Shown: positions 369 to 56,495, numbered from the whole stretch's first letter. The stretch is DNA of 56,498 nt, filler included, from Stramenopiles sp. TOSAG23-3 (GCA_900128585.1; 6 parts of 6 records of this genome joined end to end with filler, not necessarily neighbours in it); one strand, 5' to 3'. Notes: generated from the sequence alone by a model not told the origin. Made by a program: numbers and translations.

Positions 369-1247
369 ATGATGATGTTATCGTTTCTCCTTGCGGGGTT
401 GCTGGTTTCAGTGCAAGGGCAACCTCCACCGATGCCAACGCTCACGTTCGGGACTACGATTAGAATTGCCGAGGCCTACCATGATTCGCCCGGTGCAACT
501 GCTGGCGACGGGTGTATTGCAGCGGAAGGACGCCTTCGATCAGGGGGCATAGTAATATCGAAAGTTATTTTTGACGGAATTAAGGGTCGAATGCGACAGA
601 CAAACGCCAGGCTTGAGCGCAAGCCAACGGAAAACGTCACAAATATAGGCAGGTGGGATCGTGCCTCGCCCCGCGAGTGGGACTTGACGACAACCGTGGG
701 GGGTAGTGTAACGTGCGCTAGTGAGCTTTTACCACCCGTGATGTGCCCCAATGGAACTCTTCCTCCCTCGTGCCCTCCCCGTTTTGGATCATGGGGTGGC
801 CTGAACCCGTTTACTTCGATCCTTGGAATGTGGTATCCAAACACGTCAAAGCTTGCATCCTCTTCAACCTACGATTTGTACCAATTCATTGATGTGCAGC
901 GCACGCTGCTCCCAAACGATGGTTGCGGAACTTCTGCATGCACCATGGAACATTGTTCCAAGTGCCGGGGGAAGGATGGCAGCAAATGCACCAAGTGCCC
1001 TTGCGAAAATTGCATCGAAGAGGTTGATGTAACACGGAATTACACCTACAAAGTGGCTAAGGAAACGCAAGCAGATGGCACCCACCAATTGCTTCAATAC
1101 CGATGGACCCAAGGCATGCCTTTTAAGAAGAACGGAGCGACCCCTGGCGTTGGACGGGATTGTTTCATCTTTGATTGGAGTCAAGATTGGACCTCAAAAG
1201 TGGAAGATGGTGACTTTGCTCCACCAAAAGGAATCAAATGTTCATAA
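369..1247 (+). CDS. Secreted Cys-rich protein, possibly ependymin-related/LolA-like fold
   Basis: 292-aa ORF. It has a hydrophobic signal peptide, then PPPMPTLTFGTTI and VIFDGIKGRMR, and ends in DFAPPKGIKC, resembling the FxPPxxC end of ependymin-related proteins. Many Cys. The family call is by motif resemblance only. Confidence 0.6.
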   Translation: MMMLSFLLAGLLVSVQGQPPPMPTLTFGTTIRIAEAYHDSPGATAGDGCIAAEGRLRSGGIVISKVIFDGIKGRMRQTNARLERKPTENVTNIGRWDRASPREWDLTTTVGGSVTCASELLPPVMCPNGTLPPSCPPRFGSWGGLNPFTSILGMWYPNTSKLASSSTYDLYQFIDVQRTLLPNDGCGTSACTMEHCSKCRGKDGSKCTKCPCENCIEEVDVTRNYTYKVAKETQADGTHQLLQYRWTQGMPFKKNGATPGVGRDCFIFDWSQDWTSKVEDGDFAPPKGIKCS

Positions 1248-1251
1248 CTTC

Positions 1252-1276
1252 AAAACAAAATACTGGCTGTTATTTA
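1252..1276 (+). repeat. Dispersed 3'-flank element A, copy 1 (AAAACAAAATACTGGCTGTTATTTA)
   Basis: Shares the TGGCTGTTATTT core and upstream A-run/CAA with 11 other copies. Starts 5 nt after the stop at 1247. Confidence 0.8.
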
Positions 1277-1368
1277 TGTTATTAAAATTTTATCTACTTT
1301 ACCTACTTTAAAATGCTGCCTCCTCCTCCCTGACTAATAATAAAAATATATATTATTATTTAGTGTAG

Positions 1369-1630
1369 TTCTTCTTCTCTTCTTCTTCTTTCTTCTTCTT
1401 CTTTCTTCTTCTTCTTCTTCTTCTTCTCTTCTTCTTCTTCTTCTTCTTCTTCTTCTTCTTCTTCTTCTTCTTCTTCTTCTTTCTTCTTCTTCTTTCTTCT
1501 TTCTTCTTCTTCTTTCTTCTTCTTCTTCTTCTTCTTTCTTCTTCTTCTTCTTTCTTCTTCTTCTTTCTTCATTCTTCTTCTTCTTCTTCGTCTCTTCTTC
1601 TTCTTCTTCTTCTTTCTTCATTCTTCTTTT
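1369..1630. repeat. (TTC)n/(GAA)n polypyrimidine microsatellite
   Basis: About 260 nt of near-continuous TTC/TTTC repeats, read directly. Confidence 0.95.
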
Positions 1631-1988
1631 TTTTTTTATCATTTTATTATTATTTATTATTGATTGTTGTATAATAATATTATATAAAATTATTAAGTCG
1701 TCTTCTAATAATAAAAGAAAAGAACTAAGAAGAATAAGAAGAGAAAGAAAGAAGTAAAAAAAAAAAAAAAACAATTATAAATAATTATAATAGCTATTAG
1801 ATATTATAGTCTAATAAATAATTATTGATTTTTATTATATTTATTATAATAGATACTGTATGATGTGTCTATATATATATATATTTATTTTTTTAAAATT
1901 GTTGTTGTTGTTGTTTTTTTGTTTTGTTGTTGTGTTTTTGATTTTTTTATTGATGATTTTTGAAAAACAATGTTTAAAAAATAGGAAC

Positions 1989-54640: not shown

Positions 54641-54705
54641 TGATTACTAAAATCTCAGGAGCAGATATACGTTCGCAATATACGAAGACGGTAAATTTTG
54701 AGTAC

Positions 54706-54734
54706 TTAAACAACAGCCAGATTTTTGTTTTTTT
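54706..54734 (-). repeat. Element A copy
   Basis: Minus strand reads AAAAAAACAAAAATCTGGCTGTTGTTTAA, ~8 nt after the stop at 54743. Confidence 0.75.
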
Positions 54735-54742
54735 AAATAGCG

Positions 54743-56450
54743 TTAACTTTCGTCCACGACATCCCACGCTGTTTCGTCGGTTTCTTCGTTGTGGTAATAC
54801 GTGTCCCCATCCTCCGTTTTCACCATTTTCCACGGCGAACTATTAGACGGCGCCTTCACACCAACTTGTTCCGATGCGGCTTCCATCGCCCCCTTCCCGC
54901 TCTTGGGCACTTCCCAGGACACCTCATTTGTTTCCTCGTTGAAATAGTACACCTCTCCTTCGGCCTCGGCTTCCTCCCAACCCTGTGGCAACTCCCCTTG
55001 GGGCTCTGCTCCGACAAAATAATCCGTTGGAATTTCCCAACCTTCTGGTATCCAGTCCGGCAAATCCCAAGATGTGGATTCCATGTCGTCGTGCCAATAG
55101 TATACACTTCCCGAGTCCGACACTGTCACGTTCCAACCAGGGAGTAGGTCCAACTCTTCGTCCTCGTCGTCCTCTTCGCTGTATTGATGGGGCTCACTGT
55201 CGTTTTCGCCCACCCACCCATCTGGAATGTAGTCTGGAAAATCCCATGATGTGGTGACTCCATCATCGTGCCAATAAAACACTTCGTCGTCGTCAGTTTT
55301 GTCTACATTCCACCCTGTGGGAAGTGTCTTTTGCACAACGCTGAGGCGTTTGCTCTGAATTTGGTCCAATAGATCTAATTGAGAATTTCGGCGAGATTCT
55401 TTTGATGGTTGGGCATTCTGTAGCGGGTTGCGCACCATTTCGATGACACTGGTCAATTTCTTTATTTTGGTGTGCTTTGGGGGGCGCCATGACGTTTCGC
55501 CTGTGCGTTTGTTCACGAAGTACTTCCGTTTTGACGACACCCTTGCCGCTTTCCATTTGCCAAACGACTTGCTTACGCGACCCCTTTTCAAGTGCAGCCG
55601 CCAGGACCAAAATATGGCCGCGGAAAGGACTGTCATGCCGAACAATATTCCAATAATAAACCACATGTAATTGTCCGGGGAGGTTGAAATGAGCGGCCTC
55701 AAAATTGTAGGGACAGGTTCCGAGTACATGTCTAGGGATTCGTATTCAATTGAGCCATTGACAAACGGCAGCGCCTCTATCCTTTGAAGATTTTGTAGGG
55801 GACACAAAGTCATTTCGGTCGTCTCCTTTCCTTTCGTCGTTAGCCACACCATTACGTTAGCTTTCTTTTCACTAGCCCGTATTGCACGAATAAATTGGAC
55901 GCTGCCTGGCTCCAATTTTGTGACATTATTTATTGATCGTTCGTAATCGTCGCCTGTCATTGAAGGGTCGCTCGATGTGAACCTAATTTCAATCGGGGCA
56001 CACGCAATACTGAACTCGTTTGAGCGAGTGATCAGGCTTCCGGTTACGCTATCTACAATTTGAACGTAATAGTGACCCCCTGCACCAGGTAACTCATCTG
56101 CCGGCAAGCTCCATCTGATGTACCCCGAATCGCTGTCCACATAAGCAGACGATGACAACGAACCGAAGTCTGTCGTCTCAGGGCACAGGTCGATTTCAGT
56201 TGGAATCTTATCGACTCCATTGTTTACTGATGTTGCGCACCATGATTTTCCATTTAAATTACGTAGCGGCGACAACCCACTCACACACTGGAGCCGAAGT
56301 TGCCCCTCCCAAAAAAAAGGAAGGCATGGAATCCCGCGCTGGCTCTGCCAGCCAGCCCCTTCCTTGCCGGCCAGTTGCCTGCCTCTGTGCTCAGGGAGAC
56401 TAAAGCTTTTTTTGCTTGGGTTTCTTCGTACTCGCGCTCGCCAATTTCTT
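54743..56450 (-). CDS. Single-pass membrane protein with five cytoplasmic WW domains; 5' end unresolved
   Basis: TM WFIIGILFGMTVLSAAIFW and five W...Y[YF]x[NH]...W.P repeats. The frame stays open without ATG from 56284 up to the AT-rich DNA near 56455. Confidence 0.85.
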
Positions 56451-56470
56451 GTATTAAAAATAAAAAATAA

Positions 56471-56495
56471 AAAACAAAAAATTGGCTGTTATTTA
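56471..56495 (+). repeat. Element A copy
   Basis: AAAACAAAAAATTGGCTGTTATTTA. Confidence 0.85.

Follow-up and report, generated by a model that had tools for sequence, protein, structure and literature searches.

Why does one short sequence recur behind stop codons at this locus, and does it belong to the genes or to something inserted beside them? The stretch of DNA analysed here (the window) is 56,498 nucleotides long and comes from Stramenopiles sp. TOSAG23-3 (GCA_900128585.1). It consists of six contigs joined by N spacers, from a genome of 28.4 Mb in 7088 contigs, so some neighbouring copies sit on different contigs. A first-pass annotation had listed twelve copies of the motif, eleven of them downstream of a stop codon on the strand of the gene, and had proposed a 3'-end processing or termination signal, a 3'-UTR RNA element, or a tiny mobile element with a 3'-flank bias. 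On the opposite strand the motif reads as …AATAACAGCCAATTTTCTTGTTTT, the 3' tail of a non-LTR retrotransposon. We hold it very probable that this is the tail end of a single-ORF element, most copies being 5'-truncated insertions.

Copies of the motif in the window and in the genome

A weight matrix was scanned over 797,294 bases, comprising the window and contigs C1-C40 (40 of 7088, 17-19 kb each, a non-random sample), with at least 14 bits required for membership and the reversed pattern as control. We found 93 matches, against 0 for the control. Searched in the 28.4-Mb genome, the exact 26-mer gave 682 matches (381 forward, 301 reverse) and the reversed control 0. Chance is excluded as the source of these copies, and extrapolation from the 93 matches would give a total of about 3000 copies genome-wide. 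Among the matches listed by a generic repeat finder there were microsatellites and spacers only.

Eleven of the twelve copies first described were recovered at this threshold; the one at 53045 is too degenerate and is visible only by eye, and a partial match near 15056 scored under 12 bits and was left out of the family. The upstream similarity that had been pointed out (TAATGA..GGTATG) is present at about 9825-9853, where by eye it looks like a stub of sister element B (described below). The TCATAACTT that precedes the 53154 copy is also there, and it is explained as one half of an 18-nt target-site duplication that a 19-nt insert splits (halves 53141-53158 and 53178-53195).

Strands in Table 1 are those of the element's RNA, opposite to the strand used in the first-pass annotation. 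The copy at 9980..10047 differs from the 3' end of the ORF-bearing copy L155 by one substitution and a 4-nt insertion, and the copy at 28261 is overlapped by a doubtful minus-strand frame of 142 codons.

Table 1. Copies of the motif and of sister element B in the window
Feature	Position	Strand	Remark
Tail stub	1252..1276	-	5 nt 3' of + gene; 19 bits
Probable stub of sister element B	9823..9853	-	by-eye resemblance to B copies on C19, C23
Truncated copy, tail + ~39 nt subfamily-1 body	9866..9923	-	weight matrix and body comparison
Tail stub, head-to-tail with neighbours	9925..9951	-	weight matrix
Truncated copy, tail + subfamily-1 body	9980..10047	-	matches 3' end of ORF-bearing L155
Degenerate tail stub	28261..28286	-	behind + gene; 17 bits
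Sister element B stub (35077-35100) inside 14-nt target-site duplication	35058..35114	-	
Tail stub	45718..45743	-	convergent gap
Tail + interrupted subfamily-2 body	49029..49141	+	tandem gap; body assigned by eye
Sister element B site	~52510..52560		
Degenerate tail stub	53045..53068	+	under scan threshold, visible by eye
Tail stub	53070..53102	+	convergent gap
19-nt stub (53159-53177) inside 18-nt target-site duplication	53141..53195	-	
Diverged tail + body, cut by contig start	54641..54735	+	
Tail copy, cut by contig end	56470..56495	-	scan match

Near the 49113 copy, a near-identical direct repeat of about 130 nt (47524-47652 and 48947-49073) brackets a Bles03/zinc-finger gene and contains part of a subfamily-2 body. 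The gene possibly moved in with a long duplication. The ORF at 49034 has its first 30 codons inside the repeat, and these are probably non-coding. Short hairpins (TACGAGG…CCTCGTA) with nearby TAGTCGTC repeats occur in intergenic DNA at about 41784, 41857, 41985, 49072 and 51233, and one such hairpin breaks up the 49113 copy.

Position of the copies relative to genes

Genes were called with a hexamer model (339 in the 797,294 bases), and because it ignores introns, small or spliced genes may escape calling. The long open frames in the window encode eukaryotic proteins, for example kinesin, ubiquitin hydrolase and glutathione reductase; for the last, the nearest named relatives are diatom, pelagophyte and Parmales proteins (51-56% identity). 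A 2081-aa protein at 21955-28200 shows, by weak Pfam hits, Armadillo/HEAT repeats, a CHAT-like domain and a STAND-type NTPase.

Within the 797,294 bases, none of the 93 matches lies inside a called gene. By context, 67 are located in convergent gaps, 17 in tandem gaps, 1 in a divergent gap and 8 at contig ends. Copies occupy 33 of 101 convergent gaps, 15 of 99 tandem gaps and 1 of 80 divergent gaps (Fisher, p = 5e-9 for convergent vs divergent and 0.005 for convergent vs tandem), and their density is 1.65 per kb in convergent gaps versus 0.011 per kb in divergent gaps. Since the occupancy differs at equal A+T content (0.66 vs 0.67), the bias to 3' flanks is real. Copies are clustered, with 2.0 per occupied convergent gap and 1.1 per occupied tandem gap. 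Neighbouring copies are arranged as chance predicts (20 same-strand, 11 outward, 7 inward), and because the clusters show no orientation bias, repeated independent insertion suffices to account for them.

The sense orientation of eleven of the twelve copies is literally true but weak, because 7 of the 11 (9868, 9929, 9981, 45718, 53045, 53075 and 53154) lie in convergent gaps, where either orientation is sense to one gene; for those at 9981 and 53154 the opposite-strand stop is the nearer one. In the wider sample no significant strand bias was found, neither in tandem gaps (11 sense to 6 antisense, p = 0.33; 8 to 6 without the window) nor in convergent gaps (38 of 67 copies nearer the same-strand stop, p = 0.33). 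The distance from the same-strand stop to the copy ranges from 12 to 2692 nt, with no fixed offset. For the most part, the 'sense' bias is an artefact that convergent gaps create, a caution for similar work: motifs behind convergent genes can appear strand-polarised without being so.

The tail, its ORF and its insertion marks

The end of the motif at the A run is fixed, and the other side runs on into shared sequence of variable length. In a comparison with six reference bodies, 37 of 93 copies were found to continue into a body on one side (median 48 nt of body) and 5 of 93 on the other, and 56 of 93 are bare stubs, so that the copies have the fixed 3' end and variable 5' truncation of non-LTR retrotransposons. 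At least four different 3' bodies have a tail of about 45 nt in common, and three of these were seen attached to an ORF.

Longer parent elements, which the first-pass annotation had suggested looking for, do exist, as ORF-bearing copies end in the same tail. Walking inward from the extension at 9866-10047, an open frame is reached on the opposite strand; its end matches 41 places in the genome, and a metagenome scan for the element gave 25 loci. The metagenome copy L154, which is without its 5' end, contains a 1748-aa frame open from the first bases and the tail about 90 nt past the stop, and L155 contains an open frame of 922 aa with the tail about 80 nt past the stop. ORF and tail are on the same strand, with the tail about 80-90 nt behind the ORF. 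The motif is the truncated 3' end of a multi-kilobase element; the earlier idea of a tiny mobile element stands for mobility and 3'-flank bias, not for an element tiny in its own right. In its own genome we saw no full-length copy; the reverse transcriptase pieces found there with 91% and 97% identity are free of stops, two others reach 51-52% and a further one is weak.

The L154 frame contains a reverse transcriptase and a partial restriction-like endonuclease motif. Taken alone, the L154 protein gave no PF00078 hit and no single-sequence PDB hit. Three of its relatives carry PF00078, one aligning over about 1000 columns (E 2e-87), and a 9-sequence profile gave nine PDB matches, all of R2 or LINE-1 type (best R2, E 4.7e-14). 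The structure model of L154 is modest (pLDDT 64.5), and its best Foldseek matches are LINE-1 ORF2p and R2 (E 6e-7, TM about 0.4). Both the profile and the fold search point to a reverse transcriptase of non-LTR type. An unnamed protein of Closterium is the nearest named match. The C-terminal series C-x7-C-x8-H-x3-C-x8-PHN-x28-E-x32-QAD-x11-D keeps the consensus order of the endonuclease motifs, and several spacings and two residues deviate from those given in PMC12857005. By resemblance, the element appears CRE-like, with a reverse transcriptase and a putative restriction-like endonuclease.

Other leads were dropped. A 118-aa piece of the ORF matched erythromycin esterase clusters in the ESM Atlas (0.90-0.91), too weak to keep. 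A PF00078 search of the organism's own genome gave 8 matches (L141-L148), by eye 3 Gypsy-like and 5 DIRS-like or other, which were rejected as the tail source, with no tail in the excised loci; the Gypsy-like and DIRS-like frames of this genome (classes by eye) are open. Apart from these leads, the fatty-acid elongase/polyketide synthase-like protein P0135 has a C-terminus with a 53% match to the retrotransposon ORF end, probably an insertion read through in a relative.

There is no poly(A), and the T-rich tail ends in TTTTCTTG(T)4-5. A 3' poly(A) or simple-repeat tail is common, not universal, among non-LTR retrotransposons. In 52 of the 63 copies with a parsable end a T precedes the A run. 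The flanks have only this T and the A run in common, and so no specific repetitive target site, usual though not universal in the RLE-type (CRE/R2) groups, was found. The length of the tail-body junction departs from the modal one in 18 of 24 copies, versus 1 of 21 for the next body segment (p = 1.9e-6); nearly all of the variants are expansions, and most stubs stop at about this point. Later DNA slippage could contribute to this variation because the junction is very A+T-rich. In five tail regions no conserved RNA fold better than shuffles was detected (z +0.5 to +2.2), and three of the minimum-energy folds contain a 6-bp A-U stem. The subfamily-1 body includes one TTAGGG unit next to an imperfect one.

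Target-site duplications had also been named as worth looking for, and they occur above chance. Two designs were negative: a test anchored at the point of truncation as estimated (23 copies, mean 4.6 vs 4.25 nt) and a search of outward-facing pairs, in which only 1 of 21 has a flanking direct repeat of at least 9 nt. In the third design, the flank beside the fixed end was sought again within 300 nt and compared with 500 shuffles. Duplications of at least 10 nt were found in 12 of 89 copies (shuffle mean 2.1, maximum 7.3) and of at least 12 nt in 7 of 89 (mean 0.6, maximum 4.3), two of these seven being both ends of one insertion; 77 of 89 copies have none of at least 10 nt. In a wider pool, duplications of 10-18 nt were found in 15 of 118 copies of the motif and 9 of 31 copies of sister element B. 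Part of the A run is included in 11 of the 15, and a few repeats of this pool are element sequence, not flank. Variable-length duplications, as left by non-LTR retrotransposons, are thus present in a minority of copies.

Two loci differ from the rest. In one (C15; L040 5380-5700), the sole such case seen, two outward-facing tails are flanked by genomic sequence that is duplicated in inverted orientation over at least 35 nt. In the other (C35; L079 5319-5599), an inverted tail stub and a 200-nt copy lie within one 12-nt direct repeat, as if one event had involved priming of both strands on the 3' ends of RNA. Two-tail ('twin') priming was rejected as a general rule, the orientations being random.

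Sister element B has a different tail, likewise ended by a T run, and 68 exact matches genome-wide. Among the sampled copies 13 of 16 are in convergent gaps, with clear duplications, and some have a short internal stretch in common with subfamily 1. The lineage of the 51-52% reverse transcriptase pieces is a candidate source of this element.

Alternative explanations and related elements

The reading as a host signal for 3'-end processing or termination, in the orientation of the gene, could draw on 84 of the 85 gap copies, whose gaps are bordered by one or two gene 3' ends, and on tandem gaps, where 13 of 17 copies lie in the stop-proximal half (p = 0.049). Such a signal should stand at most genes, on one strand and at a fixed offset. 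Judged from DNA positions alone, a sense copy is found within 400 nt at only 49 of 325 genes (about 15%), against an antisense copy at 43 of 325 (13%), and both strand bias and fixed distance are absent; moreover, the motif is continuous with a retrotransposon ORF and has target-site duplications, which makes this reading extremely improbable. Equally hard to credit is a MITE with the motif as its terminal inverted repeats. Some pairs do face outward, and the C35 pair sits inside a single 12-nt duplication, but neighbour orientations are as by chance, the outward pairs mostly lack a common direct repeat, single stubs have duplications of their own and the body encodes a reverse transcriptase. 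Inverted terminal repeats paired at a fixed length inside one duplication were not found as a rule, and the MITE is largely refuted. Relics co-opted as 3'-UTR regulators have a precedent in Leishmania SIDER1/2, which PMC2323293 describes as short retroposon relics concentrated in 3' regions; the present stubs are likewise short relics in 3' regions, almost all of an extrapolated total of about 3000 copies being in 3' flanks. SIDERs, however, are extinct and destabilise mRNA, whereas the present family looks recent, and it has both orientations, no conserved fold, intact reverse transcriptase pieces and perfect duplications. Co-option of this kind is improbable, though the copies may have an incidental role in gene 3' ends. 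The intact pieces and perfect duplications suggest recent activity, and the element may be active at present.

What confines the retrotransposon to 3' flanks is a separate matter. Steering to transcription-termination zones, by open or R-loop DNA or by tethering to a 3'-end factor, is possible but on balance doubtful. It would fit the density of 1.65 versus 0.011 copies per kb although divergent gaps are the longer ones (median 1058 nt) and neutral space would be expected there, the occupancy that tracks the number of 3' ends (two 33%, one 15%, none 1%), and the same pattern in sister element B. However, much the same pattern would be expected from purifying selection in a large population, and survivors only are seen; TAAAA is also somewhat denser in convergent than in divergent gaps (16.2 vs 10.6 per kb), a figure inflated by the copies themselves. 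The simplest explanation of the confinement is that, the genome being compact, insertions at other places were lost; it reflects either targeting or selection, which look alike in surviving copies alone.

For the retrotransposon as such, target-primed reverse transcription from a T/U-ended RNA would fit all these observations, and the following steps may be proposed. The motif would correspond to roughly the first 26 bases of the cDNA, copied from the 3' end of the retrotransposon RNA. The enzyme would nick A+T-rich DNA, often after TAAA(A), and the A-ended DNA 3' end could pair with the U-rich RNA end and prime reverse transcription. Often it may stall 25-35 nt into the cDNA and then either quit, leaving a stub, or slip and resume, leaving extra bases there; a staggered second nick would yield the target-site duplication, and template jumping of R2 type could explain tail-to-body joins. 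The full combination, in which a U-tailed RLE retrotransposon primes on A-ended DNA, is guided to Pol II termination zones and has a built-in stall at 25-35 nt, we regard as speculative and rather unlikely. If true, most events would become insertions of 20-40 bases, with termination zones as a safe harbour.

Among known elements, the CRE group (CRE1/2, SLACS, Cnl1, MoTeR1, FoTeR) has a like arrangement, one long ORF with reverse transcriptase and then CCHC-type and endonuclease motifs. The element's QAD resembles the RAD of MoTeR/FoTeR, and its reverse transcriptase motifs may be CRE-like. Truncated copies outnumber full ones in this group (PMC12857005), and RLE-type/CRE-group elements are mostly target-specific (PMC4640811); the present element, in contrast, is dispersed, with thousands of copies behind genes, and its motif spacing is a partial fit. 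R2 (PDB 9nl3, 9dou, 8gh6) is the best sequence-profile match of the reverse transcriptase. Published work describes 5' truncation and non-templated bases at junctions for R1 and R2 (PMC2718515) and template jumping for R2 (PMC8857657). R2 uses one 28S rDNA site, whereas the present element lies outside rDNA here and has 10-18-nt duplications. LINE-1 is similar in the top Foldseek fold of the reverse transcriptase and in dispersed, 5'-truncated copies with duplications. Its endonuclease is of APE type, and T-rich DNA primes on its poly(A) tail; the present tail ends in T4-5 with an A-rich primer side, which is the mirror arrangement.

In the literature, with partial coverage and without Repbase, we found no description of this family, of T-tailed elements of the class or of LINE enrichment in convergent gaps. 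Though ordinary in kind, the element represents a new family that is somewhat unusual for the T-rich tail without poly(A), the length-variable hotspot at the stub ends and the confinement to 3' flanks. For now it counts as one more genome parasite of a familiar class, whose thousands of stubs show at which points target-primed reverse transcription fails in the living cell. If the targeting were true, it would add another safe-harbour strategy, in an endonuclease class noted chiefly for fixed sequence targets, and would be relevant to work on R2-type insertion tools.

Apart from these copies, the octamer AACCCTAA, which we take to be telomere-repeat-like, recurs in intergenic DNA, in the window at about 13557, 13975, 36350 and 40253.
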